From: Chrysomallon squamiferum
Taxonomy: Eukaryota; Animalia; Mollusca
Length of the DNA stretch: 64,000 bases
Direction: 5' to 3'
Assembly (NCBI GenBank): GCA_012295275.1
Contig: CM022679.1
Coordinates: 3,844,001-3,908,000 of the forward strand
Numbering within the stretch: position 1 is the stretch's first letter; every line of letters begins with the position of its first letter. The notes below the pieces were generated by a model. The model did no database searches. It saw nothing but the letters and a program-made list of their open reading frames with translations, and was not told the DNA's origin. The translations under genes and the position numbers were made by a program. Below, piece after piece: positions 4,014 through 56,969 of the stretch.

Positions 4014-4958
4014 ATGAACATTACAGAATATGAAGAATTCACTGTTTCTAACATGGGTCAGATGGCAGTGGAAGCAATACTTATGGCGTTTATCTGTATC
4101 GTCAATATGCTGACGTTGTTTACCGTTTATTTCAACCGTAAACTGTGGACGGTACCTAACATGTACATTGTATCCCTGGCCGTTGCGGATTTTCTTACTG
4201 GCTTTACACTTCCGTACCAGATTGTTTTTCACATTCCAAATATCAAGGCTGTATTTGATCGAAACAAATTCCTTTGCATTTGTCGACACGTATTCTTTTT
4301 CATTCTTCTGACGACTTCCATTCTTAACATGATGCTCATAGCACTGGACAGATGGGCATGCATCACGTTCCCTTTCCAATACGGACGTCTGGCAACGATG
4401 CGAAGAGCTGGACTTCTCATTGTCTTTTCGTGGGTTCTGGGAATAACGTACGGAACCGTCCCCCTATATCTGAATAACTGGAAGAATGGTGAAAAGTGTT
4501 ATTTTTTCAAAGTTCTCGTTGCAGAGTATCAACTCTACGTTCTAGGAGGAAGCTTTCTCGGTTCTGTCGTTCTCATCACGGCATGCTATGGACACATATT
4601 TCGAATTGCAGCCCGAGAACGACAACGTATTCAGAGTCTCACAGTGACGTCCAGTGCCGAAACCAGTGAGAAAAGAATGGCGAAGTTCAAAAACGACTGG
4701 GATTTGGCCGTCATGTTTAGCGTCGTGGTTGGAGTATTTATCGTCTGCTGCATGCCTGCTTTTATCTTCATAACTGTAACGTACACAGCAGGAGTCGCGG
4801 GAACTGTGAATAGTTTCACAATACCGCTTCTCGTGACCAATTCTGGAATGAATTTTATTATTTACGTCGTGAAAAACAGGCAGTTTCGAACTGCACTGAA
4901 GTCTACCTTTTTGAAATGCCGTCCACGTGTTAATGATTCAGGTAGCAGAACTGCATAA
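4014..4958 (+). CDS. Intronless class A (rhodopsin-like) GPCR, 314 aa, ligand unknown
   Basis: accATG at 4014, N-terminal NIT sequon, 7 hydrophobic helices, LAVAD (TM2), DRW (TM3), CCMP (TM6), NSGMNFIIY (TM7), helix-8-like FRTALK. Confidence 0.9.
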   Translation: MNITEYEEFTVSNMGQMAVEAILMAFICIVNMLTLFTVYFNRKLWTVPNMYIVSLAVADFLTGFTLPYQIVFHIPNIKAVFDRNKFLCICRHVFFFILLTTSILNMMLIALDRWACITFPFQYGRLATMRRAGLLIVFSWVLGITYGTVPLYLNNWKNGEKCYFFKVLVAEYQLYVLGGSFLGSVVLITACYGHIFRIAARERQRIQSLTVTSSAETSEKRMAKFKNDWDLAVMFSVVVGVFIVCCMPAFIFITVTYTAGVAGTVNSFTIPLLVTNSGMNFIIYVVKNRQFRTALKSTFLKCRPRVNDSGSRTA

Positions 4959-6106: not shown

Positions 6107-6403
6107 TTATACTCCATGTTGTTGATCAGGCAGGCGGCTGAACGTAATTTGAAGCCTGAGGCGCTGTCATACTTCCTTTCTGTTCAACATGTTCACCTAT
6201 AGGTGGCGCTGTTGACCAATTATATGTCGGATAGGACACATTACCCGCTGTCGTTGTCTGCTTAAGGTTGATGTAGTAAACTTGGGTTTGAGGGACATTG
6301 TATTGAATGACATGGCCGAAGCTTCTATCACTTTTCGTACTGGCAACGAAAAGAATTCCAGATATGATGGCGAGGACTGAGCCGATGGTGTTAAGAGCAA
6401 ATG
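6107..6403 (-). pseudogene. Claudin-like exon-3 fragment, copy B
   Basis: Only the 3' part of exon 3 is present, cut at ~6403 and joined to the upstream region of the hairpin unit. A 1-nt insertion at ~6127 turns PPAY into PPA-stop. Confidence 0.8.
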
Positions 6404-6654
6404 AAGTAAACTGTTTGTATTAAACCGAATAAAAACAAGAAAAACCCGATAAATTCGATATTATTTTATGTTTCTTTGAATAATATCAAGAAAGGTTTCA
6501 CATTATCATGATTACAGAAATATTTTTTAAATTGGTATTCTTAAAAGGAATCACATCAAAATTACTTATATACACATATCACAGAATGATAATGTTACAA
6601 AAGATTTTAACGCGAAAAAAAATCAACGAAAAAAACACAAGTTCTTGTTGGCGA

Positions 6655-6760
6655 CGCCATTGCTAACGTCAAGGTGACTTCTTTTACGTCGTAGTTGTGT
6701 CTATATAAGGACGAGAAAACAGAGAATGACGTAAGCCTGAGGGTTCTTTTTATAAAACAA
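6655..6760 (+). promoter_or_regulatory. Putative Pol II promoter of the hairpin-RNA unit
   Basis: TATATAA 6702-6708 and TATAAAA 6751-6757. CRE/ATF-like AACGTCA, TTACGTC and TGACGTAA (6727-6734). Conserved upstream of copies 2 and 3. Confidence 0.5.
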
Positions 6761-6779
6761 TTGAACATCCACTACCCCG

Positions 6780-7124
6780 TTGATTTATATCCGGGATGTG
6801 GAAAAACGGGACGCTGATTAAACAGCTAATCTCAAGGAGTGTTTCTTTGTTCACTGGATCCTGCATCCTGCATCTTGGTGTTGTGTTTGGTTGGAAATCG
6901 TCTTCAAAACTGATTGTTGATGATCCGCTCCGAGGTTCATTACTACGGTTAGAGGTCGGGACACCCCGAACTTTCCAGAACGTGACCGAAGGGAGGATCT
7001 TCTGTAATCAAAAGCGAAGACGACTCAAGCATTCTGCAGCTCTCAACGATGACAGGATGGAATCCAGCGACCGAAGGAAACAAAAACAAATCTACCAAAC
7101 CCCGGCCCTTTTTAGGGCCACCAA
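6780..7124 (+). ncRNA. Putative structured RNA: ~240-nt rod-like hairpin ending in a histone stem-loop, copy 1
   Basis: Nested complementary blocks symmetric about TCGGG-acac-CCCGA (6956-6969), spanning 6841-7081. GGCCCTTTTTAGGGCC at 7104-7119 followed by ACCA. 5' end inferred from TATA spacing. Confidence 0.6.
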
Positions 7125-7137
7125 ATCTTAAGAAAGT
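7104..7137 (+). terminator. Histone-type 3' processing signal (stem-loop + purine-rich downstream element)
   Basis: ccaaacccc-GGCCCT TTTT AGGGCC-acca, then AAGAAAG ~10 nt after the stem. Matches the 6-bp stem/4-nt loop of replication-dependent histone mRNAs. Confidence 0.8.
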
Positions 7138-7405
7138 TTCTTTTTATACAATTGCTAATCCAGTTTCTAATTTTAGTTAAATAATAAAAGAAAAAAGAAA
7201 AAGAAATAATCTATTTATTTATTTTTATTTTTATTTATTTATTTATTTATTTTGACTCCACGTGGAGAATATTAAATTTATATAAACAAATATAATAGAA
7301 AGACTGAGTCCCCGTAAACTTGCTCATAAATTCAAGACGACAAACGTATAATTACTTCGTGGGAATCAATGATTGTCCTCGGTTATTCAGTAACTTTTTT
7401 TTTAA

Positions 7406-7552
7406 GGTTGTTTCGATAGCCGAATGGTAATGTCGTCTGGGTTCGGAGTGCTGGCGAATGGATGCCTTACGTTCAAGTCTTATCAGCGATCTCTGACAGG
7501 TTTGTGATGTAGTGACTGGACTTTGTCCTTCTGCGCGAGTTCGTTCCCGTAT
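7406..7552 (+). mobile_element. tRNA-derived SINE-like / Pol III head, copy 1
   Basis: A-box-like TAGCCGAATGG 7417-7427, B-box-like GTTCAAGTC 7471-7479, second B-box-like GAGTTCGTTCCC ~7538-7549. No complete cloverleaf. Confidence 0.45.
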
Positions 7553-7792
7553 ATAGTGTATACGCTAGAGTCTATTCACACCTACATAATGTATGTTTTT
7601 TTTTATACCTGTATATGTATGTATGTATGTATGTGTGTATCTGTGTATGTGTGTACATTATTTAAGAAAATTATGAGATGTCATATGTGCATTTTTGTCA
7701 AAAATAGCATTTAATTGCAGCTTAAGAAGAAAAATAATAAAACAAAACAAAACAAAAACCAGCGACGCAAAAAAAAAAAACCTACAAACCTG

Positions 7793-7861
<69 letters not shown>

Positions 7862-7922
7862 TAATAAATTAAAATAAACAAGAACAAAGTCTTGTCCATG
7901 ATTATCCGCAGTTGCTATATGC

Positions 7923-8547
7923 CGCATTTCAGATATGCCGCCGCTAATAGGTGCAAAGAACAAGACAACAATTGCCCAGCATCCCGCGTCTCACATCCTG
8001 CGTCTCACTCGTTTACTTCACGTGGACACCTCGCCGCGGAAACATCTCTGTTGTGTTCTGTTCGAGTTTTCTGCAGTATTTTGCCAAACTTTTTTTTTCA
8101 GACCATGGATCCTAAGAAAGTGAGTGGAAAGGACAGTGCTGGGAAGAAGAAGCGGATGATGTCCATTGAATTAAAGCTTGAATGTAGTCGACTTGGCTAG
8201 GCAGTACGAGCGTAGTCCTTCTACGATATGTACCATTCTGAAGCAGATGGAGTCGATAAAGGCTGTAACTCCAGCCAAAGGCGTAAAAAATAATTTGTCT
8301 CATCTCCAATTTATTTCTTTACATTCTCTTTTATATTGTTCTTATACAATATTAGTCATTTATAAATACATTTTGTATTGTTATTTAAAAAAAGAACAAA
8401 AAGAAAGACGGGTGGTTTTGGGGGAGCTGGAACGGATTAATAGTATTTCAAATAATTTCAGTTGGGAGAATTGATTTGATATGCGACCAAATTGAGTTAC
8501 AAGCTCGGTCACGGAACGAATTAAACTCGTAAGTCAAGGCACCACTG
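7923..8547 (+). mobile_element. Tigger/pogo-like DNA transposon remnant, 5'-truncated
   Basis: Broken transposase N-terminus (MDPKKVSGKDSAGKKKRMMSIELK / VVDLARQYERSPSTICTILK, HTH-psq-like). Right TIR CTCGTAAGTCAAGGCACCACTG followed by TA. Confidence 0.75.
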
Positions 8548-8895
8548 TATTTTAAATATATGTTGTACTAAATTTGATTTCATGAACTTAATACGAAACT
8601 AATCTACAAATCACAACATGCAGTCAGAATTAATTATCTTTTACAATAATTATTGCAGATTTTGCTTTGTGATGAACAACTGTTTTCAAGTTTCATATCC
8701 TATGCAAAAAACAACAAAAACAAAAAACACACAAAAATCCCCGAATCTTTAGTATTATGACGTTTACACGTTTCTCTATCGTCATTAGTAAGTTAATATA
8801 AAAACTGCGGAAAGCTGTTAATTTAATTACACTGTCTTCTGGATTTACGTTTTATAATCTGTGTTGTTGATCATAATTTGAAGCCGAAGGCACTT

Positions 8896-9178
8896 TCATA
8901 GTTTTGTCTGTTCAACATGATCACCTATAGGGGGCGCTCTTGCCTGTTTATCTGTCGTCTGCGTAACAACTGTCGGATAGGACGCATTACCCCGTGTCGT
9001 CGTCTGCTGAATGTTGATGTAGTAAACTTGGGTTTGAGGGACATTATGCTGAATAACGTGGCCGAAGCTTCCATGACTTTTCTTACTGGCAACGACAAGA
9101 ATTCCAGATATGATGGCGAGGACTGAGCCGATGATGTTAAGAGCAAACGACCAAGATAAATGTACTGTATCGGTGTCT
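8896..9178 (-). CDS. Claudin-like exon 3, copy C (partial, runs into gap)
   Basis: Near-identical to copy G exon 3, ends ...DHVEQTKL-stop. Upstream part hidden by Ns. Confidence 0.6.
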
Positions 9179-9378
9179 NNNNNNNNNNNNNNNNNNNNNN
9201 NNNNNNNNNNNNNNNNNNNNNNNNNNNNNNNNNNNNNNNNNNNNNNNNNNNNNNNNNNNNNNNNNNNNNNNNNNNNNNNNNNNNNNNNNNNNNNNNNNNN
9301 NNNNNNNNNNNNNNNNNNNNNNNNNNNNNNNNNNNNNNNNNNNNNNNNNNNNNNNNNNNNNNNNNNNNNNNNNNNNNN
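9179..9378. other. Assembly gap (200 N)
   Basis: Run of n. True size unknown. Confidence 1.
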
Positions 9379-9555
9379 TTACTATTTAACGTTGATGCGT
9401 CAAAACCTGTACAGAGACGATATACAAAAAAATGTCATCATGGAAACAGAGGTTCGTTGTTTTGTTCATTAATACATAAACCTTTCAAAAGTATAATATG
9501 GCAGCAACAATACAATTTTTTTTTTTAAATTAAAAATTAAAAATTAAATTAATGA

Positions 9556-9590
<35 letters not shown>

Positions 9591-10218
9591 CAAATCATAG
9601 TCATATTAATAATAATAATAATAATAATAATAACATAAATATAATTTAATTAAAAAGACGTGTGTATGAAATTACACAACAGAAGGCATTATTTCACCGG
9701 TTATGTATTTTTTTTTCATACGTATACTTCAAATAATAATTTTATATTTTAAATATATGTTGTACTAAATTTGATTTCATGTACTTATTAAAACTTAATA
9801 CGAAACTAATCTACAAATCAGAACATGAAATTAAAATGAATTATCTTTCTTAATAATTCTTGTAAATTTGGCTCTCTCGTGGACAACTATTTTCAACGTC
9901 TGATGTCCTACACAAAAAAAAAAAATCTCTATCGTCATTAGTAAGCTAATATAAACTGCGGAAAGCTGTTAATTTAATTACACTGTCTTCTGGATTTACG
10001 TTTTATACTCCATGTTGTTGATAGGCAGGTGGCTGAACGTAATTTGAAGGCTGAGGCACTGTCATATTTCCTGTCTGTTCAATATGTTCACCTATAGGGG
10101 GCGCTCTTGCCTGGTTATATGTCGTCTGCGTAACAACTGTCGGATAGGACGTATTAGCCGCTGTGGTCGTCTGCTGAACGTTGGTGTAGTAAACTTGGGT
10201 TTGAGGCACTGTTACGGG

Positions 10219-10478
10219 CTAAATGACATGGCCGAAGCTTCCATGACTTTTTGTACTGACAGCGACAAGAATTCCAAATATGATGGCGAGGACTGAGCCG
10301 ATGATGTTAAGAGCAAACGACCAAGATAAATGTACTGTAACGCTGCCTAGAGCAGATTCGAAAACGATGCCAATAACTCCATAGAACACGTCGACTATAC
10401 ATCCTAAAATACCTGAAATAAATAAATAATAATATAATAATAATAATCATAATCATAATCATAATCATAAACATAATC

Positions 10479-10511
<33 letters not shown>

Positions 10512-12288
10512 TCAAAGACAGTGACACTTTCGATGTCATTTACAATATGAGAAACAACTGTGAAATAAAAATCATGTAAAACATTAAGAAGGAGAAAAAA
10601 ATAAGGAAAAGAATAAGGAAATAAAACAACTCCAACACCAACAACATTGTTATCACTGCCATCTTAGTCGTCGACGTCGTCATCACATTAATCAAGAGAG
10701 TCTCAACTATTTACGTTTTGGAGACATCAGAGGTGAGTTTTTAGTAAGCTGGGAAAGTAGCCACCAGAACGACTGTGTTAAATTATCTACATTGATTCAG
10801 CTATCTATCTATCTATATATATCCATCTATCCAACCAACTGACCATCTGTCCATCTATCTATTTCTGTCTGTCTTTCTTTATATATACATATATGTCTAT
10901 CTATCTACCTACCTACGTATTTACTTATCTCTGGATCAATCTATCTATCTATCTATCTGTCTATCAATCTACTTAACCATGAGAAATAGGTCTGTGCAGG
11001 CACTTACATATTTTTATTAATTTGTTTATATTCTGTGGGTAATACAGGTATATTTTACCTCCTATTATTATCATATTTTTATTAATTTGTTTATATTCTG
11101 TGGGTAATACAGGTATATCTTACCTCCTATTATTATCATATTTTTATTAATTTGTTTATATTCTGTGGGTAATACAGGTATATCTTACCTCCTGTTATTA
11201 TCATATTTTTATTAATTTGTTTATATTCTGTGGGTAATACAGGTATATCTTACCTCCTGTTATTGTCGTCCCACTTACTATGTTGGGTGACATTTGAGGA
11301 GAGCACATGTTCACCACAATGGCCATGATTCCACCAAACACCAGGAATATGAACGCCAGAATCTGAACAACTCGGAAAGCATCGTAAACAGCTGAAGACA
11401 CAATTAAAACTCACATTTTATAATGAATGAATGTAATTTATTATGGATGATTACAGTTTACAGTACATAAAGATAATTTACTATTATATAACTATAATGT
11501 TACTTGTATAAATATAATATACCGATATATAAAAATAATGCATTTTTTATAATCATAATGTACTGTTGTATAAGATTAATGTACTGTTATACAATTACAA
11601 TGTACTGATACAGATGTGTAATGTACTGTTATATGATTATTATGTAGTGATATGTAAATGTAATGTCCATCTAATGTAAATATAAGTAAAATGGCCTGTT
11701 ATATAATTACAATGTTATATAAGAATAATGTACTAATACATAAGTATAATCTCCTCTTATATATGTATAGTGTAATTGCAACATGTACTGTTATATACGT
11801 ATAATTACATGTTATTATAATGTACTGTCACCTCAGTATAATAATGTACAGTTATGTAATTAAATGTACTGTTGCATAAGAATAATGTACCGTTCTACAA
11901 TTAAAATGTGCTGACATATATGATAATATAACGATAGTGTACTGTCATGTAATTGTAATTGTCAGTATAAATATTATATAAGTAACTTTGGGTGTGTACA
12001 ATAAATAATTTTAAATAAAATGTACAGATATATTACATATAACTACCAGCTGTGATTCCAGATTATATAACTCACTAATTGGGACGAATCAGAATTACCT
12101 GTAACTCCAAATTCATATGAACTACAAGAATCCATGGAAGCTGAGCAAATTTGCCACAAGCCAATCAACTCATTGCTGGCCTCGAACCAAGCAGGCGTGG
12201 CGAAGCCAACAAGGAAAAAGAGAAAACTGAAAAACACACCAAATGTTCCTACTTTGTAGACAGTCGACGTCTCGGACCAGTTCGGCAT
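10219..12288 (-). CDS. Claudin-like copy D, tail-truncated by premature TAG (~173 aa, four TMs retained)
   Basis: Exons 12288-12099, 11391-11254, 10412-10219 with intact splice sites. TAG at 10221-10219 where most paralogs have CAG/CAA. Ancestral tail continues in frame to 10003. Confidence 0.75.
11020..11265 (-). repeat. 65-bp minisatellite made of repeated exon-2 splice donors
   Basis: GGAG|GTAA donors at 11254, 11189, 11124, 11059 (65-nt period). Related arrays follow exon 2 in copies A, E, F, G. Confidence 0.85.
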
Positions 12289-12840
12289 GATCTAAAAACT
12301 TGTTAATCCTCAGACAGAATCAGAAATGTATGTAATGAAGGTGTGTAGGTCTAATGAAACTATGTCACCCAGCGAGCTAAACGTTTTAGTCGGGTATGAA
12401 ACAAGGCAGTTTGGAAATAGTCACAGTGTCCTTATTGACTGTGTGTGTTGCTAGTCAGAAGTAAACACTAAACAGGTTTTACCTGAACAGGCTGCGCAAA
12501 TCAATAGGTGATCATTGTGTACATGTAAAAGACTACGATATTAGGTAAAGGCGCGGATCAAGAGGTGATCCTATTGCATTTAATTTAGAATGAAGAGTGG
12601 TACATTTCAAATATTATACATTTAATTTATAACGATGTTTGTTAAATTTCAAATATTAAATATTTAATTTAGAATGAAGACAGATAAATTTTAAATATAA
12701 TACATTAATCTGTAATAATGAAGATAATAATAACGATGATAATAATGATAATAATACTAATGACGATAATAATAATAAAAATAATGATGATATATGAATA
12801 ATAACGTCAGTATTGACAAGTAAATCAACTGTGTACCTAC

Positions 12841-13813
12841 TGAAACATCCACATATACAGCAGTGACATGAAATATAAAACCAGGAGATGTTTTGTTCAT
12901 GGTGGTGGTGGCTGGCAAGCTTTCAAACTGAGGACTCTCTTTATATTTCAACTTAAATTATTACCAGAATTAAATCAACATTACTGTTAATTTAGAACAA
13001 CAGCAATGATATATTTTGTCCTAACATATTTACTGTATATATCGATATATCTGGGTGTTAATAAAATTACTGAAAATTCCATTGCACAAAAGTATCATTT
13101 TAAAAATACATCATGTAGCAAGCAATCATTCCAAGAATAATATAACTGTCGAATTAGTGTCAGATATAAAGTGAAAACTGACAGAACACAAAGAACAGGT
13201 TACTGTAAAGCGAGTGTTTTTCATTGGCTCATTCTTCAGACTTCTCTTGAGAAAAATAATTCCTGAGTTTGTATGTAAACCAAAGACGTCACTGGAGTGC
13301 GTGCTTTCGGTCATTGTGTACTCTGTCTGATTGTGTGGACTCTGAAGAAACCACATCTCTTTGTATCATACCCTTGAGTACTCACATATTGGCATGACAT
13401 ATATCACTGAACATATAATACACATTAGTAACACAATCTATCCTCTATCTTTCTTTCCATCATCCATCTGTTAATCCATTCACACAGCCTATAATTTAAA
13501 AACATATATCTAATAAACTTCTATTAATAAACTGTAAGATATATGTCAAAAAATACAATTGACTTCAAATTTGGAATTTTCCTCTTGTTTTTTTATTACT
13601 GTGGATCAGAAAGAAAAATAAACAGTCTAAGAATCAAAAACATATTTCTGCTTATTCTTTACCTTAGTGTCATTATCAGAGACCAACACACTGGGTTTCA
13701 GTCATTGTAATAACATCACTTGCTAATTAAAATTCAGTTTCAAACATACTGAGGTCTACTTTAACAACAACACTGGTCACCTACCATAGCCTGGGACTGA
13801 CCCTGTCAAACAT
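12841..13813 (-). pseudogene. Cadherin-repeat exon remnants, set 1
   Basis: Decayed exons translate as ...VVVKVDLSMFETEF*..., SPHNQTEYTMTESTHSSDVFGLHTNSGIIFLKRSL and SPQFESLPATTTMNKTSPGFIFHVTAVYVD. Stops and deletions present. Confidence 0.6.
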
Positions 13814-14117
13814 CTGAATGAGTAACAAGGTAATACAAAATATTAGTGTGTTATCATACTTACAAATATAACTACGTCTCTTAATGTTAATTAATAGAAT
13901 CGTGAATATTAATTATTATATCTGATTTTCAGGACTAAGAAATGTTATTAATCACATTACTGCATATAACAAAATAAATAAATAAATAAATAAATAAATA
14001 AAAATAATCATTAAAAAAATATATTACATTCAAATCAAAACAGCTGTTAATATCAAAGTATTCATGCATACACACATTCTACACATAATTAATCTCCGTG
14101 TTATAAATTATTTAAAA

Positions 14118-14939
14118 ACCATTTCTCTTGGTGATGTTTTGCATATAATGCTACTGAAAGAGATCTCACTGTAAGATATTCCTAATGTTTCGATCACAAT
14201 TTGAAAAATACGTTTTAATAATAAAAGAAAAATGGGCCGAACCTAAATTATTAGAAAAACTAACCTGTTATCTTTTATTAGACGCTGAGTTTTTCAAGAG
14301 AGCATCCTCATATCCCCAGTATCCCCCCAGAATATGATTACGTCAGCCTCAAAATTTACTGGATTTACTAAGATTACGAAACCGATCACAAATTTAAATA
14401 TATGAGTAAATGCTGGTTTTCTTTCTTTCTTCTTATTCTTTTTTTTTATTTTTTTTATTTTTTATTTTTTATTTTTTATTTTTTTTTTTTTTACATTTGT
14501 TGTGGTGTTTTCTTTGACTGTTATTTATCATTTTTAAAGAAATATTTGCACTGAATATTGCATATTTTATACTGTTTATTAGTTAGTCGTAACTGAATAC
14601 CTTGAAAACGCTGTCAGAAGTAAACTGTTTGTATTAAACAGAATAAAAACAAAGAAAAACTCGATAAATTCTGTATTATTTTATCTTTCTTTGAACAATA
14701 TCAAGAAAGTTTTGACATTATCATGATTACAGAAATATTTTTATAATGTATTCTTAAACAGAATCACATCAAAAATACTTATATACAAATATCAGAGAAT
14801 GATAATGTTACAAAAGATTTTAACGCGAAAACAAATCAACGGAAAAAACACAAGTTCTTGGTGGCGACGCCATTGCTAACGTCAAGGTGACTTCTTTTAC
14901 GTCGTAGTTGTGTCTATATAAGGACGACAAAACAGAGAA
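14118..14939 (+). repeat. Upstream/promoter-only remnant of the hairpin-RNA unit
   Basis: Homologous to ~23830-24640 and ~32900-34000. Ends just after the first TATA (14915-14921) and abuts the stop of claudin copy E. Confidence 0.85.
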
Positions 14940-18693: not shown

Positions 18694-19642
18694 ATGAACA
18701 TTACAGAATATGAAGAATTCACTGTTTCTAACATGGGTCAGATGGCAGTGGAAGCAATACTTATGGCGTTTATTTGTATCGTCAATATGCTGACGTTGTT
18801 TACCGTTTATTTCAACCGTAAACTGTGGACGGTACCTAACATGTACATTGTATCCCTGGCCGTTGCGGATTTTCTTACCGGCCTTACACTTCCGTACCAG
18901 ATTGTTTTTCACATTCCAAATATCAAGGCTGTATTTGATCGAAACAAATTCCTTTGCATTTGTCGACACGTATTCTTTTTCATTCTTCTCACGACTTCCA
19001 TTCTTAACATGATGCTCATAGCACTGGACAGATGGGCATGCATCACGTTCCCTTTCCAATACGGACGTCTGGCAACGATGCGAAGAGCTGGACTTCTCAT
19101 TGTCTTTTCGTGGGTTCTGGGAATAACGTACGGAACCGTCCCCCTATATCTGAATAACTGGAAGAATGGTGAAAAGTGTTATTTTTTCAAAGTTCTCGTT
19201 GCAGAGTATCAACTCTACGTTCTAGGAGGAAGCTTTCTCGGTTCTGTCGTTCTCATCACGGCATGCTATGGACACATATTTCGAATTGCAGCCCGAGAAC
19301 GACAACGTATTCAGAGTCTCACAGTGACGTCCAGTGAGAAAAGAAACCAGTGAGAAAAGAATGGCGAAGTTCAAAAACGATTGGGATTTGGCCGTCATGT
19401 TTAGCGTCGTGGTTGGAGTATTTATCGTCTGCTGCATGCCTGCTTTTATCTTCATAACTGTAACGTACACAGCAGGAGTCGCAGGAACTGTGAATAGTTT
19501 CACAATACCGCTCCTCGTGACCAATTCTGGAATGAATTTTATTATTTACGTCGTGAAAAACAGGCAGTTTCGAACTGCACTGAAGTCTACCTTTTTGAAA
19601 TGCCGTCCACGCGTTAATGATTCAGGTAGCAGAACTGCATAA
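18694..19642 (+). pseudogene. Frameshifted duplicate of the class A GPCR
   Basis: Nearly identical to 4014-4958, with a net +4 nt change at ~19337 in ICL3 giving a stop at 19353 after TM5. Confidence 0.85.
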
Positions 19643-20807: not shown

Positions 20808-21380
20808 TTATACTCCATGCTGTTGATAGGCAGGTGGCTGAACGTAATTTGAAGCCTGAGGCGCTGTCATACTTCCTTTCTGTTCAACATGTTCACCTAT
20901 AGGGGGAGCTCTTGCCTGTTTATCTGTCTTACCCGCTTTACCCGCTGTCGTTGTCTGCTTAAGGTTGATGTAGTAAACTTGGGGTTGAAGGACATTGTAT
21001 TGAATGACATGGCCGAAGCTTCTATCACTTTTCGTATTGGCAACGAAAAGAATTCCAGATATGATGGCGAGGATTGAGCCGATGGTGTTAAGAGCAAATG
21101 ACCAAGATAAATGTACTGTATCGGTGCGTACAGCAGACTCAAAAAAGATGCCAATAAACACACAGAGCACGTCGTTGATGCATCCTAAAATACATGAAAT
21201 AAATTGTTATCAGTGTCATCTTAGTCGTCGACGTCGTCATCACATTAATGAAGAGAGTCTCAACTATTTACGTTTTGGAGACATCAGAGGTGAGTTTTTA
21301 GTAAGCTGGGAAAGTAGCCACCAGAACGACTGTGTCAAATTATCTATATTGACTCATCTATCTATCTATGTATCTATCTG

Positions 21381-21419
<39 letters not shown>

Positions 21420-21945
21420 GGCTGTATATCTATCTGTCTCTCTATCTATCTATCTATCTGTCTATCAATCTGTCTATCTATATATCTATAAATCTATCTC
21501 TCATTCTATCTATATAACCATGAGAAATATGTCTGTGCAAGCAGTTACATGCTTTTATTAATTTGTTCATATTCTGTGGGTAATACAAGTATATCTTACC
21601 TCCTGTTATTATCATATTTTTATTAATTTGTTTATATTCTGTGGGTAAAACAGCTATATTTTACCTCCTGTTATTATCATATGTTTATTAATTTGTTTAT
21701 ATTTATATTCTGTGGGTAATACAGGTATATCTTACCTCCTGTTATTATCATATTTTTATTAATTTGTTTATATTTATATTCTGGGGTAATACAGAGGTAT
21801 ATCTTACCTCCTGTTATTGTCGTCCCACTTACTATGTAGGGTGACATTTGAGGAGAGCACGTGTTCACCACAATGGCCATGATTACACCAAACACCAGAA
21901 ATAAGAAGGCCAGAATCTGAACAGCTCGAAAAGCATCGTAAATAG
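20808..21945 (-). pseudogene. Claudin-like copy F (exon 1 absent, both acceptors mutated)
   Basis: Exon 2 21945-21808 and exon 3 21193-20808 have open frames, but both acceptors read CAT instead of CAG. Exon 1 removed by a deletion near 22560. Confidence 0.8.
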
Positions 21946-22631
21946 ATGCAGGTAAATTAAAACGTACATTTTATAATGAATGTATATGATTTATTATGGA
22001 TGATTATAGTTTACAGTACGTAAAAATAATTTACTATTATATAACTGTAATGTTCCTTGTATAAATATCATATACCGATAAATAAAAATAGTGTATTTTT
22101 TGTAATTATAATGTACTGTTATATAAGAATAATGTACTGTTATACAATTACAATGTACTGATACAGATGTTTAATGTACTGTTATATAATTATTATGTAG
22201 TGTTATGTAAATGTAATGTAAATATAAAGTAAATATAAGTAAAATGGCGTGTTATATAATTACAATGTTATATAAAAATAATGTATTTATATATAAGTAT
22301 AATGTCCTCTTATGTATGCATAGTGTACTGTTATATACGTATTACATATGTTATTATAATGTACTGTCATCTCAATATAATAATGGACAGTTATGTAATT
22401 AAATGTACTGTTACATAAGGATAATGTACCGTCATACAATTACAATGTGCTGATATATACGATAATATAACGATAGTGTTCTGTTATATTATTGTAATTG
22501 TCAGTATAAATATTAGATAAGTAACATTGGGTGTACAAGCAACCACAGATTAGTAGAATAAATAATAATAAAAATAATGATGATATTAGTAATAACGTCA
22601 GTATTCACAAGTAAATCAACTGTGTACATAC

Positions 22632-23531
22632 TGAAACATCCAGATATACAGCAGTGACATGAAATATAAAACCAGGAGATGTTTTGTTCAAGTTTCAAAC
22701 TGAGGATTCTTTTTATATTTCAACTTGAATTATTACCAGAATTAAATCAACATTTGTGTTAATTTACAACAACAGCAATGATATATTTTATCCTAACATA
22801 TTTACTGTATATATCTATATATCTGTGTGTTAATAAAATTACTGAAAATTCCATTTAAAAAAAGTGTCATTTTAAAAATACATCATATAGCAAGCAATCA
22901 TTCCAAGAATAATATAATTGTCGATTTAGTGTAAAAAAGAAAGTGAAAACTAACAGAACATAGAGAAAAGGTTATTGTAAAGGGTGTGTTTTTCATTGGC
23001 TCATTCTTCAGACTTCTCTTGAGAAAAATAATTCCTGAGTTTGTATGTAAACCAAAGACGTCACTGGAGTGCGTGCTTTCGGTCATTGTGTACTCTGTGT
23101 GATTGTGTGGACTCTGAAGAAACACACATCTCTTTGTATTATAGCCTTGTATGGATATGTTAATTCAAACACAACAACTTTTATTAATAAAGTGAAAACT
23201 TAAAACTGATACCAAAAATCAACTATAAGATGTATGTTAAAAATTACAATTGACCTAAAATTTGTTATTTTCGTCCTCTTTTTTTTTTATTACTGTGGAT
23301 CAGAAAGAAAAATAAACAATCTGAGAATCAAAAACATATTTCTGCTTATTCTTTACCTTAGTGTCATTATCAGAGCCCTGAAACTGGTAAACAGAGAGAC
23401 CAATAGACTGGGTTTCAGTGATGGTAATAACATCACTTGCTAATTAAAATTCAGGTTCAAACATATTGCGGTCTGCTTCAACAACAACACTGGTCATTTA
23501 CCATAGCCTGGGACTGACCCTGTCAAACATC
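22632..23531 (-). pseudogene. Cadherin-repeat exon remnants, set 2
   Basis: Paralog of 12841-13813, includes VVVEADRNMFEPEF*LASDVITITETQSIGLSVYQFQGSDNDTK|gt (N-x-x-x-P-x-F, E, S-D-x-D cadherin pattern). Confidence 0.65.
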
Positions 23532-24142
23532 TGAATGAGTAACTAGGTAATAAAAATATTAGTGTGTTATCACACTTACAAATATAACTACGTCTCTTAA
23601 TGTTAATTAATAGAATCGTGAATATTAATTATTATATCTGATTTTCAGGACTAAGAAATGTTATTAATCATATTACTGTATATAACAAAATAAATAAATA
23701 AATAAATAAATAAAAATAAACATTAAAAAAATATATTACATTCAAATCAAAACAGCTGTTAATATCAAATTATTCATGCATATACACATTCTACACATAA
23801 TTAATCTATGTGTTATAAATTATTTAAAAACCATTTCTCTTGATGATATTTTACATATAATGCTACTGACAGAGATCTCACTGTAAGATATTCCTAATGT
23901 TTCGATCACAATTTGAAAAATACGTTTTAATAATAAAAGAAAAATGGGCCGGATCTTAATAATTAGTAAAACTCGACTGTTATCTTTTATTAGACGCTGA
24001 GTTTTTCAAGAGAGCATCCTCATATCCCCAGTATCCCCCCAGAATATGATTACGTCAGCCTCAAAATTTACTGGATTTACTAAGAATACGAAACCGTACA
24101 CAAATTTAAATATATGAGTAAATGCTGGGTTTCTTTCTTTCT

Positions 24143-24177
<35 letters not shown>

Positions 24178-24695
24178 TATTCTTTTTTTTTTTTTACGTT
24201 TGTTGTGGTGTTTTCTTTGACTGTTATTTATCATTCTTAAAGAAATATTTGCACTGAATATTGCATATTTTATACTGTTTATTACTTAGTCGTAACTGAA
24301 TACCTAGAAAACGCTGTCAGAAGTAAACTGTTTGTATTAAACCGAATAAAAACAAGAAAAACCCGATAAATTCGATATTATTTTATGTTTCTTTGAACAA
24401 TATCAAGAAAGGTTTCATATTATCATGATTACAGAAATATTTTTAAATTGGTATTCTTAAAAGGAATAACATCAAAAATACTTATATACACATATCACAG
24501 AATGATAATGTTACAAAAGATTTTAACGCGAAAACAAATCAACGGAAAAAACATAAGTTCTTGTTGGCGACGCCATTGCTAACGTCAAGGTGACTTCTTT
24601 TACGTCGTAGTTGTGTCTATAAAAGGACGACAAAAAAGAGAGTGACGTAAGCCTGAGGGTTCTTTTTATAAAACAATTGAACATCCACTACCCCG

Positions 24696-25040
24696 TTGAT
24701 TTATATCCGGGATGTGGAAAAACAAGACGCTGATTAAACAGCTAATCTCAAGGAGTGTTTCTTTGTTCACTGGATCCTGCATCCTGCATCTTGGTGCTGT
24801 GTTTGGTTGGAAATCGTCTTCAAAACTGATTGTTGATGATCCGCTCCGAGGTTCATTACTACGGTTAGAGGTCGGGACACCCCGAACTTTCCAGAACGTG
24901 GCCGAAGGGAGGATCTTCTGCAATCAAAAGCGAAGACGACTCAAGCATTCTGCAGCCCTCAACGATGACAGGATGGAATCCAGTGACCGAATGAAACAAA
25001 AACAAATCCTCCAAACCCCGGCCCTTTTCAGGGCCACCAA
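24696..25040 (+). ncRNA. Putative rod-hairpin RNA with histone stem-loop, copy 2
   Basis: TATAAAA 24667-24673, rod 24757-24997, GGCCCTTTTCAGGGCC 25020-25035 + ACCA + AAGAAAG. Confidence 0.6.
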
Positions 25041-25609
25041 ATCTTAAGAAAGTGTCTTTTCATGCAATTGCTAATAAGTCCAAATCGAAGAAAGAAAGAA
25101 ACAAATTTAAAAATTCACATAAAAGCATAAATATTATAATTATTTTTCAGTTAATAATTATTTCTCATAGAAAATAGTCACTCTGAAACTTTAAAAGAAC
25201 AAACATAACAAAATAAATTTTAACTAAATTAGAAGTTTGAATTAAAGTTACGAGCAAGTAACAAAGCACGGAAATAAATAACTAAAGAATCATATATATA
25301 TAAATACAAAAGTAAGATTTTGGGGAAGGGTATATTTTTAATTTTTTATATTTATTTATTTTTAAAAATTTTAAATTCAGTTTTAATTATTTTTTATTTT
25401 TATTTTTTATATTATTTATTTATTTTTATTTTTATTTATTTATTTATTTATTTATTTTGACTCCACAAGGAGAATATTAAATTTATATAAACAAATATAA
25501 TAGAAAGACTGAGTCCCCGTAAACTTACTCATAAATTCAAGACGATAAATGTATAATTACTTCGTGGGAATGAATGATTATCCTCGGTTATTGAGCAACT
25601 TTTATTTAA

Positions 25610-25755
25610 GGTTCTCTTGGTGGCCGAACGGTAATGTCGTCTAGCTTCGGAGTGCTGGCGAATGGGTGCCTCACGTTCAAGTCTCGTCAGCGACCTCTGA
25701 CAGGTTTGTGATGTAGTGACTGGACTTTGTCATTCTGCGCGAGTTCGTTCCCGTA
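25610..25755 (+). mobile_element. tRNA-derived SINE-like / Pol III head, copy 2
   Basis: A-box-like TGGCCGAACGG at 25621, B-box-like GTTCAAGTC ~25675, GAGTTCGTTCCC at 25741. Confidence 0.45.
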
Positions 25756-25807
25756 TATTGTGTATAAGCTAGGGTCTATTCAGACCTACGTATGTATGTG
25801 TTTTTTT

Positions 25808-25844
<37 letters not shown>

Positions 25845-26007
25845 TGTATGTATGTGTGTGTGTGTACATTATTTAAGAAAATTATGAGATGTCATATGTG
25901 CATTTTTGTCAAAAATAGCATTTAATTGCAGCTTAAGAAGAAAAATAATAAAACAAAACAAAACAAAAACCAGCGACACAAAAAAAAAAAACCTACAAAC
26001 CTGAAAA

Positions 26008-26048
<41 letters not shown>

Positions 26049-26260
26049 TAAATTAAAATAAACAAAAACAAAGTCGTGTCCATGATTATCCGCAGTTGCT
26101 ATTAAAAGAAAGTGCATCAAAACCTGTACAGAGACGATTTATTAAAACACGTCATTATGGAAACATAGGTTCGTTGGTTTGTTCATTAATACATAAACCT
26201 TTCAAAAGAATAATATGGCAGATACAATGAAAAAAACAACATTTAATGACTAAAAGTTGA

Positions 26261-26292
<32 letters not shown>

Positions 26293-26317
26293 CAAATTAT
26301 AGTCCGAATCAACTAAA

Positions 26318-26368
<51 letters not shown>

Positions 26369-26473
26369 TAAAATTGAAAAGACATGTGTATGAAATTACA
26401 AAACAGAAGGCATTATTTCACCGGTTATATATGTTTATTTTATCTTCCTTATACTTAAAATAATAACACTATA

Positions 26474-27147
26474 CAATGGTACCTCGAGTTACGAGTGATC
26501 CAACTTAAGAGCAGATCCGGGTCGATTTTTTCCTTTGAGTTGCGAGCCAACATTCGAGTTACGAGCGCATTTCAGATATGCCGCCGCTAATAGGTGCAAA
26601 GAACAAGACAACAATTGCCCAGCATCCCGCGTCTCACATCCTGCGTCTCACTCGTTTACTTCACGTGGACACCTCGCCGCGGAAACATCTCCGTTGTGTT
26701 CTGTTTTTTTTTTTTCAGACCATGGATCCTAAGAAAGTGAGTGGAAAGGACAGTGCTGGGAAGAAGAAGCGGATGATGTCCATTGAATTAAAGCTTGAAT
26801 GTAGTCGACTTGGCTAGGCAGTACGATATGTACCATTCTGAAGCAGATGGAGTCGATAAAGGCTGTAACTCCAGCCAAAGGCGTAAAAAATAATTTGTCT
26901 CATCTCCAATTTATTTCTTTACATTCTCTTTTATATTGTTCTTATACAATATTAGTCATTTATAAATACATTTTGTATTGTTATTTAAAAAAAGAACAAA
27001 AAAAAAGACAGGTGGTTTTGGGGGAGCTGGAACGGATTAATAGTATTTCAAATAATTTCAGTTGGGAGAATTCATTTGATATGCGACCAAATTGAGTTAC
27101 AAGCTCGGTCACGGAACGAATTAAACTCGTAAGTCAAGGCACCGTTC
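26474..27147 (+). mobile_element. Internally deleted Tigger/pogo-like transposon with both TIRs and TA target duplication
   Basis: TA-CAATGGTACCTCGAGTTACGAG ... CTCGTAAGTCAAGGCACCGTTC-TA, with a transposase HTH remnant. Empty paralogous site at ~9745. Confidence 0.85.
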
Positions 27148-27505
27148 TATTTTAAATATATGTTGTACTAAATTTGATTTCATGAACTTATTAACACTTA
27201 ATACGAAACTAATCTACAAATCACAACATGCAGTCAGAATTAATTATCTTTTACAATAATTCTTGCAGATTTTGCTTTGTGATGAACAACTGTTTTCAAG
27301 TTTCATATCCTATGCAAAAAACAACAAAAACAAAAAACACACAAAAATCCCCGAATCTTTAGTATTATGACGTTTACACGTTTCTCTATCGTCATTAGTA
27401 AGTTTATATAGAAACTGCGGAAAGCTGTTAATTTAATTACACTGTCTTCTGGATTTACGTTTTATACTCTGTGTTGTTGATCATAATTTGAAGCCGAAGG
27501 CACTT

Positions 27506-28187
27506 TCATAGTTTTGTCTCTTCAACATGATCACCTATAGGGGGCGCTCTTGCCTGTTTATCTGTCGTCTGCGTAACAACTGTCGGATAGGACGCATTAC
27601 CCCGTGTCGTCGTCAGCTGAACGTTGATGTAGTAAACTTGGGTTTGAGGGACATCATACTGAATGACATGGCCGAAGCTTCCATGACTTTTCTTACTGGC
27701 AACGACAAGAATTCCAAATATGATGGCGAGGACTGAGCCGATGATGTTAAGAGCAAATGACCAAGATAAATGTACTGTAACGGTGACTGGAGCAGACTCC
27801 AAAGCGATGCCAATAATTCCACAGAGCACGTCGACTATACATCCTAAAATACCTGAAATAAATAAATAAATAAATAAAATAAATAAATAATAATAATAAA
27901 ATCAACGACAGTGACACTTTCGATGTCCTTTACAATATGAGAAAGAACTGTGAAATAAAAATCATGTAAAACATTAACAAGGAGAAAAAATAAGGCAAAG
28001 AATAATTAAATAAAACAACTCCAACACCAACAACATTGTTATCACTGCCATCTTAGTCGTCGACGTCGTCATCACATTAATGAAGAGAGTCTCAACTATT
28101 TACGTTTTGGAGACATCAGAGGTGAGTTTTTAGTAAGCTGGGAAAGTAGCCACCAGAACGACTGTGTCAAATTATCTATATTGACTG

Positions 28188-33535: not shown

Positions 33536-34051
33536 CTTTTTTGTTTTGTTTCGTTTGTTGTGTTTTGTTTTTGACTGTTATTTATCATTTCTAAATAAAT
33601 ATTTTTATTGAATATTGAACAATTTATGTTCTTTTTTTACTTAATTCTAACTAAATGACTAGAAAACACTGTCAGAAATAAACTGTTTGTATTAAACAGA
33701 ATAAAAACAAAGAAAACCCTGATAAATTCGATATTATTTTACCTTTCTTTGAATAATATCAAGAAAGTTTTGACATTATCATGATTATAGAAATATTTTT
33801 GATTTGGTATTCTTAAAAGGAATAACATCAAAAATACTTATATACACATATCAGGGAATGATAATGTTACAGAAGATTTTAATGCGAAAACAAATCAACG
33901 CAAAAAACACAAGTTCTTGTTGGCGACGCCATTGCTAACGTCAAGGTGACTTCTTTTACGTCGTAGTTGTGTCTATATAAGGACGACAAAACAGAGAATG
34001 ACGTAAGCCTGAGGGTTCTTTTTATAAAACAATTGAACATCCACTACCCCG

Positions 34052-34396
34052 TTGATTTATATCCGGGATGTGGAAAAACAAGACGCTGATTAAACAGCTA
34101 ATCTCAAGGAGTGTTTCTTTGTTCACTGGATCCTGCATCCTGCATCTTGGTGCTGTGTTTGGTTGGAAATCGTCTTCAAAACTGATTGTTGATGATCCGC
34201 TCCGAGGTTCATTACTACGGTTAGAGGTCGGGACACCCCGAACTTTCCAGAACGTGACCGAAGGGAGGATCTTCTGCAATCAAAAGCGAAGACGACTCAA
34301 GCATTCTGCAGCCCTCAACGATGACAGAATGGAATCCAGTGACCGAATGAAACAAAAACAAATCCCCCAAACCCCGGCCCTTTTCAGGGCCACCAA
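34052..34396 (+). ncRNA. Putative rod-hairpin RNA with histone stem-loop, copy 3
   Basis: TATAAAA 34023-34029, rod 34113-34353, GGCCCTTTTCAGGGCC 34376-34391 + ACCA + AAGAAAG. Homology to the other copies stops ~35 nt after the stem. Confidence 0.6.
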
Positions 34397-34819
34397 ATCT
34401 TAAGAAAGTGTCTCTTCATACAATTGCTTTCGTAATCATTGTTAAATAATAACAAAATAAAGTGTAATAAATAATCTAGTTGTGATAATAAAAATAATTA
34501 TGCTTGATAAGCTCATAAATAATTATAATATAAAAACAAATAAATAATCATTAGTACTAATAAAGCTAAAATAAATGATAATAATAAATAATTATTCAAC
34601 ATAAATAAATAAATAAATATTTTTTATAAGTTTTTATGAATAGTCGATTAGTTCATAGGTAATCAACGGAAACACATAATATGGGAATATCATTTTAGAG
34701 TTGTTTCCCTTAGATCAGCAAAAAGGATAAAAAATAAATGTTCTGGATTCGTTGCTGATAGTAGTAATGTTTATAATAAGCTTTTAATTTGTAGGTTATT
34801 TTGGTTATTTATAAGATTC

Positions 34820-51547: not shown

Positions 51548-54500
51548 ATGTCAAAGTCCCAATTTGGTAAATATGGAACACTGGAAGTTACTGAATCATT
51601 TGGCACTGAAATATGTAAATTATGTGCCCTTTGTGAGTTCGATTGTTTTGTTTACATCAAATGGATAAATAATCTGGGCAACCGTCGTTTATTTGTCAGC
51701 TTTAAAATACTTTTATACTGCTTTGAAAGGTTCACAAACGAGCTATATTATTTTAAATTTCCCTGAATTTCTTGTACAAATGGCGCGGGTTTTAAGCTGT
51801 ATTTACGTGTCAAAGCCTATTTCTTACGAAGAACAATCAGTGGATCTTATTGTATTGGCTCATTATATTTATTGAAAATCAATACCTTTTAACAGCATGA
51901 ATGTTTTCACATGATTTTTGAAGAGTTTGATCATTATAATTATAATTTTGATGCAGGGGTGTGGTTTTGCTTCCCTCAAGGGTTTTTGTTTGTTTACCCT
52001 TGTTAAAAATGAAATTGCAATTTACTAAATATTGTATACATACAGAAATACACTGAATAAATTTTTTTTTAAATGTCATTTAGCCATTTAAAAAGTTCCT
52101 CAAGTGAAATATGGTTTTGAATTTTAATTCTATACAAAATACTTTTACATTCCAAATTGCTAGCATGCACTAACAGTAAAAATTTAGATTATACTATTTC
52201 ATTGAACATTGTAGATGTTTATAACTGTTTTTAATTTAATTAGGAAATAACGTATAGTTCATACCAGAAGTAACAGTAATTAATATACTGTAGAATTCTG
52301 AGTACAGACATACCTCCGAATTTTAGGTATTATATCATGCACAGGATAAAGCACTCACTTTCATTTAATCATTTGCCATCTTACTAAATTTAGATGAAAT
52401 GTTTAACTTTGCACAAATTTTAGTTATGTATAAGTTTCTACCACAACTTTGAATAAACTGACAGGTATATTTTTAAAAATTATGATTCTGGTCTAAAGTA
52501 CTGAAACAGAAAGTTTTTGTTTGTTAAACAAACAATAACCAAATTTTTGTATAATAACCAACTAAGAAGTATATATTCTGTTATTTGTAAACAATTTTAT
52601 AAAAGACATATATTTGACATTTTATCTTATTTTAGTTAAAATCTAAATTCTGCATAATTAATGATGATACATGTGTTCCTTAGCGTGACGGCTACAATAT
52701 GCTTGTATAATTAACACCATTATATATATGACTGTCAGTACAAACATTGATAGCAAGTTTGAAAAAGTTAAAAATCTTCTAAATATTATTTTGGGAACAA
52801 ATATATGTGAAATTTAAGTATTTCAATCTGCTACCTAATTGAATAAGATTTTATTTTGCTTTGTTATTTTTTTCTTACTATTTTATCTTATTATAATTTT
52901 TTTCTTCTTTCAGGAACAAATAAAGAAGATATATTAATAGTGAGAACTAGTTCTGCTGGATCAGAAACATCAGCAGCAGGAAACGTAGAAATAGGCAACA
53001 ATGTGAATAATTCCAATATTACAATGATAAGGACCTCTGCTGGCATTGTTCTGCCTCAGACATCAAGTTCTGGCTGCCCAGAAATGACAACACTTCAGTC
53101 AATTCAGGCAGAAATTGCCAAGCTACAAGAAGCTGGACTTGTTTCTAAGAACGAAACAATTATTGTTAAGGCGTCTTCAGATGTTGTTGATTCATTAAAA
53201 AACAGTTCACAAACCATTACTGTGAACACCTCAGCAGCTGCAGGAACAAACACTAAACCAGGAGTAGGGCAGATGCAAGTGTCAGTTGTTGAAATTCCTG
53301 TAAATGATGAGAAACCGGTTCTGAAAAGACAGCTACCTTCCACCAGTGCCAATAGTCCTGTTGTTACCAAGGTGATAATCACAAAGAACCCGAACACAAA
53401 TCAGCCACAACCTGTTCCTGTAGATGTAACACAGCTGCAAGGACAGACAGTGTCAGCCAGCTCAGTAACAGCGAGCTCGGTTCCAACAAACACAATACAG
53501 GTGTCAAAATCTCAAACAAAGACTTACACAATCTCATCTCAGGGTACTTTATCACCTGTTAAAAGTGTTCTAGGTGGGCTACCAGTTACACCCACCAAAT
53601 TGACAATACCAGCAAGTCGATTACCGATTTCACCATCAAGGACTCAGACAAAGATCACTATGATCCCTGTATCGATGGCAAAATCTCCACAGAGGATTAT
53701 TGCTGTGTCTTCTGGAAGTTCTCTTGTAACACGGACTATTGCAGACATGTCTAACACACAAACAACAAGTACAGCCACATTGTCAAAGCCATCCACTATA
53801 ACAATGTCCCCATCTAAAGTCATAATTAAACATGGCAATGGGGTAAGCAAACATGGTTTCTTTATTGATAATTAACTTCCTAAAAATTAACCCTGACCAT
53901 AGTTTTAAAACATTATTCCAGTAAGTATTCAAATGTAATTGTTGTTAATATTATCATTATCTAAGTAGTTGCAGTGCTTAAGTTTCTTCAACAGTTTCAA
54001 GTTGTTTTTCATGTGATAATAATAGCAAGCAGTCCAGGAGTTTATAAAAAAGATTCTTAAGATTCATACAATTATTATATAAAAAGTTAATGACAGACTG
54101 GTCAGATTTAGTATATCCAGAATACAACAAAAATTAAAATTATTGTAGTAAGGAAGTTTAACTTATAATATATACCTGTTTTTATACAGCACAAAGAAAA
54201 AACATTGAAATTCAAGTATTTCTGCACACCATTCTTTTTACACTAATTTTAAGTGAATCTCTGTGTTAAGTACTGTTTACTTCTTTGCTGTAATTCTATT
54301 TTTCTTCAGTGATTGGGCTTGAAAATTCATCACCAGTTTAAAAACCTAACATTTTAACCTTTCACTGCTGTAGTTTTTCTCTATGATTTTTGTAAATGTC
54401 ATATTGATGTAACCTTTAAAAAAAGTGATATTACCTCTTCTGAAAAGATTTTACTCAATCTAACAAAAGCAAAAGATAAAAAAAAAAAAAAAAGACACAT

Positions 54501-56934: not shown

Positions 56935-56969
<35 letters not shown>

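Follow-up and report, generated by a model that had tools for sequence, protein, structure and literature searches.

The 64,000-nt stretch of the Chrysomallon squamiferum assembly analysed here (the window; contig CM022679.1) carries tandem, rearranged claudin-like genes on the minus strand between 1 and 31500 (weak Pfam Claudin scores), two single-exon genes for rhodopsin-family receptors (4014–4958 and 18694–19642, the second split into two frames) and exons of a lin-54 homologue at 53024–60368. One lin-54 exon, which places the window among gastropods, shared 84% identity with its counterpart in Gigantopelta aegis (Peltospiridae), compared with 44–47% in the next snails. The window also contains a plus-strand unit that holds no histone and ends in a histone-type stem-loop followed by AAGAAAG. 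The preliminary description counted three copies, and a pattern search of both strands of the window agreed: the stem-loop plus downstream element matched three times only, as GGCCCTTTTYAGGGCC at 7104, 25020 and 34376 on the plus strand with ACCAAATCTTAAGAAAG after each, and in none of 300 block-shuffled windows. A fourth copy is truncated (Table 1). Copy 3 stands outside the duplication of claudin and receptor genes that surrounds the others. The segment at 6403–14939 looks like a permuted version of the copy-2 region (21203–27788), with a 327-nt overlap in the unit promoter and a piece of claudin-like exon repeated at both junctions. This arrangement fits insertion through a circular intermediate; misassembly of the segment is also possible because it has an N gap at 9179–9378.

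The AT-rich upstream region of the unit is fused at 6403/6404 to a claudin-like exon. Its 3' end is AAAACACAA (6632–6640), which resembles the H1 box. An H1 box is named, without a sequence, in PMC6027317. The promoter-like block that follows differed at 1–4 positions per 120 nt between copies. In copy 1 it contains the CRE-like sites and the two TATA-like boxes that had been described, as judged by consensus motifs, and TATAAAA at 6751 is likely the working TATA box. The loop of a small hairpin about 40 nt past the predicted start holds ATTAAA, a variant of the poly(A) signal, and AATAAA is present 3' of every copy. Homology had been described as stopping soon after the downstream element in copy 3; this is so, but it is not peculiar to copy 3, as all copies diverge within about 25 nt. 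A GC-richer repeat, SINE-like by eye, lies 3' of copies 1 and 2 (7400–7560 and 25600–25760); ARAGORN found no tRNA in it and Rfam gave nothing.

Table 1. Positions in the window of the parts of the unit, of its copies and of the contigs from RNA libraries.
Feature	Positions	Strand	Remarks
AT-rich upstream region	6403–6640	+	common to all copies
Promoter-like block	6641–6760	+	CRE-like sites at 6666, 6684 and 6727, TATA-like TATATAAG at 6702, TATAAAA at 6751; putative function
Predicted 347-nt transcript, copy 1	6778–7124	+	start placed from TATA box at 6751, end from five-nucleotide rule
111-codon frame, first ATG	6796–7131	+	stop overlaps downstream element; probably not a protein gene
Small 4-bp hairpin, loop ATTAAA	6813–6826	+	pair probability 0.99 in copy 2
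243-nt imperfect fold-back (rod)	6840–7082	+	apex near 6961–6964
Histone-type stem-loop	7104–7119	+	followed by ACCAA (7120–7124)
Purine-rich downstream element AAGAAAG	7130–7136	+	10 nt past stem
AATAAA 3' of copy 1	7183–7188	+	possible read-through poly(A) signal; distance differs in other copies
Copy 4	14617–14939	+	upstream region and first half of promoter only, fused to claudin-like exon
Copy 2	24320–25075	+	hairpin 24756–24998, stem-loop 25020–25035, downstream element 25046–25052
Copy 3	33675–34481	+	hairpin 34112–34354, stem-loop 34376–34391, downstream element 34402–34408
RNA contig, run X1	33911–34298		
RNA contig, run X2	34017–34264		
RNA contig, run X3	34171–34368		
RNA contig, run X4	34050–34290		depth 61

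The unit carries the 16-nt stem-loop (RF00032) that characterizes replication-dependent histone genes. The Rfam Histone3 model matched at 7099–7143 (32 bits, E 5.6e-7) and at 25015–25060 (33 bits, E 2.3e-7), which bears out the histone-type signal; both scores are just below the gathering score of 34, and a scan of the whole window at the gathering cut-off gave no match. As had been noted, the sole difference between the stem-loops of the copies is at loop base 4 (7113). The stem keeps G-C at pair 2 and the loop U, features described as diagnostic in a screen that covered only regions downstream of histone genes (bioRxiv 10.64898/2026.10.14.759114). The purine-rich element AAGAAAG is in place downstream. 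To call the signal canonical was too strong, in that the 5' flank is ACCCC, without the adenines of histone genes, and the spacer from stem to AAGAAA is 10 nt, versus 11–12 nt in the 14 of 22 comparison loops that carry AAGAAA. Stem position −3 is C in the unit and A in 22 of 22 distinct comparison stem-loops, whose loci are not known to be molluscan. The ACCCC flank weakens the reading as a histone end, since flanking adenines are described as required for full SLBP affinity in the mammalian system (PMC10388802). The cut in histone mRNAs is placed five nucleotides past the stem in the same bioRxiv text (10.64898/2026.10.14.759114). For U7, the candidate pairing stretch of the unit is AAGAAAGU; the box given as conserved in PMC5054213, UCUUU, would pair with four of the five bases of AAAGU in the downstream element.

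Conservation between copies is highest in the stem-loop and downstream element, with 0–1 differences in 43 nt. Such conservation would suit the idea, raised in the preliminary description, of an SLBP or U7 decoy, in which the stem-loop does the work by titrating histone-processing factors, as would the existence of short forms (see below) that are little beyond promoter and stem-loop. Nevertheless, we consider a decoy quite improbable: the long hairpin in the body is left unexplained and is not needed for it, the 5' flank of the long form is without the adenines that favour SLBP binding, and at least one short form (X4 record 1) has an altered stem. S-phase or oocyte regulation, also suggested in that description, is speculative.

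The earlier failure to find a histone in any frame was borne out by Pfam, tblastn and DNA profiles. Pfam gave no match in six frames of the unit with stops read as X, and tblastn with histones from metagenome loci placed no match on the unit among its best 25 rows (E up to 2.6). Scores of the body on DNA profiles were at the level of shuffled sequence, with 243 (H4), 158 (H2B), 44 (H3) and 263 (H2A) of 500 shuffles as high. The reference histones came from other animals, H2A was represented by one partial gene, and H1 was covered through Pfam only. Some short stretches of the body look H4-like by eye; this likeness was rejected, as 243 of 500 shuffles outscored the body on the H4 profile. When the DNA was aligned locally to H4 genes, the best of 18 comparisons gave z 2.6. 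This value, together with a histone-like promoter and 3' end and a length near that of an H4 gene, is what a decayed histone gene (an orphon with its coding region past recognition) has to recommend it. Since three methods (Pfam, tblastn and DNA profiles) reject a decayed core histone, and since decay would neither make a palindrome nor spare the unit relative to its flanks, we regard an orphon as very improbable.

Other known families fared no better in these searches. Rfam at E up to 10, run on two 1.3-kb stretches holding copies 1 and 2, returned Histone3 as the sole family, without SRP, 7SK, microRNA or ribozyme, and ARAGORN found no tRNA. A microRNA gene was rejected because the body is a 243-nt rod in place of a precursor of about 70 nt and matched no Rfam microRNA. 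A metagenome scan for the stem-loop with AAGAAAG yielded 15 loci, 13 of which have a histone frame before the match, while one is cut off and one is non-histone; beyond the 3' signal, none of the 15 was similar to the body or promoter of the unit. The stem-loop pattern gave no match in viral contigs.

The anatomy given in the preliminary description held, but its account missed the main feature, namely that the body of the unit is a 243-nt imperfect fold-back. For the predicted 347-nt transcript of copy 2 the folding energy was −129.8 kcal/mol (z −7.0), a value that none of 100 shuffles reached. The rods alone had z values of −4.8, −7.3 and −6.4 in the three copies, compared with a minimum of −3.0 among 53 other tiles of the window with a GC content of at least 0.36. 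The arms are complementary in 79–81 of 124 columns, and their alignment scores of 81–87 exceed shuffle maxima of 65–71 (300 shuffles each). In copy 2 the rod has 89 predicted pairs, the longest helix being 9 bp. A long inverted repeat of this kind (243 nt, 89 pairs, z −4.8 to −7.3) in one predicted transcript is a property of hpRNA genes.

Evidence that the rod is kept as an RNA structure is mixed. Transitions make up a fraction of 0.34–0.38 of the arm mismatches, whereas simulated decay of a perfect palindrome gave 62% when transitions were set at 76% (p 0.0007), 50% when set at 60% (p 0.04) and 44% when set at 50% (p 0.16); among variants between copies, 17 of 21 are transitions. The pattern of arm mismatches thus appears to depart from that expected if a perfect inverted repeat had decayed neutrally, a difference that is non-significant if transitions are 50%. 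They are also slightly clustered (p about 0.05). Among 11 variants in the rod, five keep a pair, three are unpaired and three break a pair (49–60% breaks expected; p 0.03–0.12). Counting against a hairpin RNA are the lack of compensatory changes among 108 pairs in three near-identical copies, the absence of a G-U strand bias (5–7 G-U pairs versus 5–6 A-C mismatches), and the opposite strand, which folds nearly as well (z −4.7 to −6.2). Rods on both strands with few G-U pairs, and a long open frame that crosses the rod, would also be seen if a viroid-like or deltavirus-like circular RNA had integrated within a histone-type cassette, but any palindrome folds on both strands. Viroid-like and zetavirus-like rod RNAs carry self-cleaving ribozymes in both polarities; in the unit no Rfam ribozyme was found at E up to 10, and the exact hammerhead core CTGANGA is absent from either strand. 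A 22-nt rod word also had no exact counterpart in viral contigs, and we give an integrated circular RNA next to no weight.

A 111-codon frame starts at the first ATG of the predicted transcript and is open in all three copies. Frames this long are rare by chance: an ATG frame of at least 109 codons in any frame arose in 62 of 20000 shuffles, which counts against a non-coding RNA, and a first-ATG frame of at least 100 codons in 157 of 20000. The unit could accordingly be a young protein gene, translated from read-through, polyadenylated RNA, with an AATAAA downstream of each copy and the cut at the stem-loop as an off-switch that removes the stop; non-histone coding genes with histone ends do exist (locus L012, below). 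Against this, there was no sign of coding selection, as 7 of 21 variants were synonymous versus 24–29% expected (p 0.2–0.4). No homologue was found among 5.8 billion proteins of 61–195 residues or among 1.84 billion representatives, and no usable Atlas match was obtained; a single-sequence structure model was weak and uninformative (pLDDT 44). Some variants in run X5 are frameshifted. In addition, the frame traverses the stem and has its stop (7129–7131) inside the downstream element and, as had been pointed out, beyond the predicted cut at 7124, whereas histone genes are described as having theirs 25–60 nt upstream of the stem (bioRxiv 10.64898/2026.10.14.759114). The frame is probably non-coding, and a young protein gene is improbable.

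Five public runs hold the unit. Runs X1–X4 are metatranscriptome RNA from one study; X5 is of unrecorded kind, covers the flanks as DNA would, and may be the assembly's own source. All the run data are contigs, which speak to presence in RNA libraries and not to strand, ends or level, and DNA carry-over is possible. The rod is partly covered by contigs in all four RNA runs, all of one study, and these contigs cover the stretch of copy 3 that is equivalent to the predicted transcript of copy 1. No long-form RNA contig in X1–X4 covers the stem-loop. The X1 contig starts (33911) upstream of both TATA boxes, and a paralogue RNA contig with other upstream letters (X4 record 3) reads through the stem-loop and downstream element; both count against a hairpin RNA with a histone-type end. 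The X4 contig, the deepest of the RNA contigs, starts 27 nt past TATAAAA, where an X5 contig continues, and contig ends are not evidence of starts. The multi-copy upstream stretch at 33655–33909 had no RNA contig in X1–X3, contigs likewise not being evidence of levels.

The X5 contigs indicate a wider family. One contig through the rod had a depth of 417, versus 51 for the contig with the letters of copy 1, a rough hint of about eight further copies. In short forms (X4 record 1, which has the altered stem, and a joint and loose ends in X5) the stem-loop follows just after the position equivalent to 34078–34084, without the rod. X5 also contains damaged variants: two with frameshifts, one with a broken stem and one without the first arm. 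Many diverged relatives of the promoter at 33910–34060, with other letters downstream, were seen in this run as well. In copy 3 the rod is flanked by an 8-nt direct repeat, AAAAACAA, at 34074 and 34354, 280 nt apart; given this flanking repeat, the short forms may have lost the rod through deletion, or they may represent the ancestral shell. The rod begins 30 nt inside the left repeat, and the stretch between the repeats does not have inverted-repeat ends. Among the matches listed, summed depth in X5 is lower over the rod than over any other part of the unit; few contigs lead out of the rod, which is found mostly inside the cassette.

These variants bear on whether the unit does anything at all. 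It may be a functionless or selfish cassette, a histone-gene shell that lost its coding region, received a fold-back by insertion, multiplied through segmental duplication and gene conversion, and is transcribed incidentally. The rod-less relatives, the direct repeat around the rod, its TG start and CA end, the absent G-U strand bias, the damaged variants and the position of copies 1, 2 and 4 inside a rearranged duplication would all agree with this. On the other hand, no abundant free-standing rod at 80% likeness or more was found in X5 among the matches listed, the stretch enclosed by the direct repeats does not end in inverted repeats, the mismatch spectrum differs from that of simple decay, and the short forms can equally be rod deletions between direct repeats. 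We therefore regard a passive cassette as unlikely, though it deserves serious consideration. Even so, such a cassette would show that histone-gene shells are recycled.

The unit diverged less than its flanks in two of the three comparisons between copies. Over the 497 positions that run from the promoter to the downstream element, copies 2 and 3 had 6 differences, compared with 19 in 237 upstream (p 6e-6) and 5 in 22 downstream; for copies 1 and 3 there were 12 differences in 497 positions inside and 19 in 237 upstream (p 7e-4). No contrast was seen between copies 1 and 2 (15/497 inside versus 7/237), both of which are within a larger duplication. The low divergence of the unit fits selection or gene conversion bounded by the unit, and gene conversion without selection could explain it.

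Overall, the feature is real and unusual, and more structured than first described. Its anatomy, the lack of a histone or of a homologue of its frame in the searches above, its lower divergence relative to the flanks and the RNA-library contigs over its body all support a Pol II unit without a histone, probably non-coding, that carries a histone-type 3' signal. The reading that we favour, and hold as quite possible, is that of a gene for a structured non-coding RNA whose promoter and 3' end are of histone type, present in multiple copies in this snail. Its RNA is likely about 350 nt long, with one 243-nt rod as its predicted fold and an end at the histone stem-loop.

We hypothesize the following course of events. 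Pol II would probably start about 30 nt past the TATA box at 6751. It is reasonably likely that SLBP would then bind the stem-loop and U7 pair with AAGAAAG, with CPSF73 cutting at about 7124, so that the RNA would have no poly(A) tail. The body is predicted to fold into an interrupted rod, which would be the working part. As a tentative best guess, proteins that bind double-stranded RNA could take the rod as a substrate; the Drosha/Dicer1 microRNA machinery is the most likely of these and would release one or two small RNAs from it. The histone-type end may set the timing of the precursor, make it more stable and prevent it from entering the poly(A) route. Drosha motifs comprise UG at the hairpin base and CNNC at a set distance. 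UG is present at the start of the rod base. The CNNC at 7092–7095, however, is about 23 nt from the implied cut, outside the usual window, and these motifs were therefore not used as support. Arm-matching targets were absent from the 64-kb window (best E 0.52). Phased siRNAs of the fly type are an unlikely output, as the helices of the rod are short (at most 9 bp) and molluscs are without DICER2 and siAGO, both given as absent from Mollusca in PMC11114477; no endo-siRNA pathway or signature is reported from molluscs in two surveys (PMC11114477, PMC12479628).

If the favoured reading of a structured non-coding RNA gene is true, the histone 3' pathway has a non-coding client, which breaks its exclusivity, and other clients of the pathway in invertebrates can be looked for in a direct test. 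As described in PMC4604434, histone mRNAs are the sole cellular mRNAs with this stem-loop end, and SLBP cross-linking in human cells is said there to have given no target besides histone mRNAs. In the literature that was searched, which left out most subscription papers, there was no report of a non-histone RNA with a histone-type end in molluscs. Under the favoured reading one would further ask what purpose a long endogenous hairpin serves in molluscs, in which the surveys are reported to have found no endo-siRNA pathway (PMC11114477, PMC12479628). A bolder and rather doubtful extension is a new class of animal non-coding RNA, in which the long-hairpin products of a gene family mature through the SLBP/U7 histone pathway and provide double-stranded RNA timed by the cell cycle or the germline. 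Were this true, double-stranded RNA would be supplied in a phylum that lost the siRNA Dicer, and promoter and 3' end would be a reusable cassette for different payloads (the long rod, the short form, other bodies).

The unit can be compared with four known systems. Fold-back MITEs have a palindromic body, TG...CA ends, a flanking direct repeat, and short and long forms, all of which are shared by the unit. In contrast to MITEs, the arms of the rod are about 70% complementary over their whole length, there are no inverted ends at the direct repeats, and the rod was not seen as an abundant separate repeat in X5 among the matches listed. A histone-type 3' signal without a histone is shared with locus L012, where two tandem non-histone genes lie on the minus strand (776–1177 and 166–294). 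The first encodes 133 aa, has cysteine pairs near the N terminus and reaches no more than weak scores for zinc-ribbon families in Pfam; the second encodes a truncated paralogue of 42 aa. Each has three ATTGG/CCAAT boxes, a TATA box and a histone stem-loop, and the second also has AAGAAAG; they differ from the unit in being small protein genes for which no long hairpin is mentioned. With Drosophila hpRNA genes (Nmy, hp-CG4068, hpRNA1) the unit shares a transcript built around a long inverted repeat and, sometimes, multiple copies. Fly hpRNAs are described as being cut by Dcr-2 into siRNAs and as resembling their target genes (PMC10317233), and their precursors as being tied to polyadenylation (PMC5392987), whereas the unit has a histone-type end, helices of at most 9 bp and no target found within the window. 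With metazoan replication-dependent histone genes it shares the 6-bp stem and 4-nt loop, G-C at pair 2, U at loop position 3, ACCAA, the purine-rich element, a TATA promoter, no sign of introns and multiple copies; unlike these genes (RF00032, SLBP, U7 snRNP, CPSF73), it has no histone frame and no stop before the stem, its 5' flank is ACCCC, its spacer is 10 nt, and its body is a 243-nt fold-back. At its ends the unit resembles a histone gene and in its body a fly hpRNA gene, without qualifying as a member of either class.
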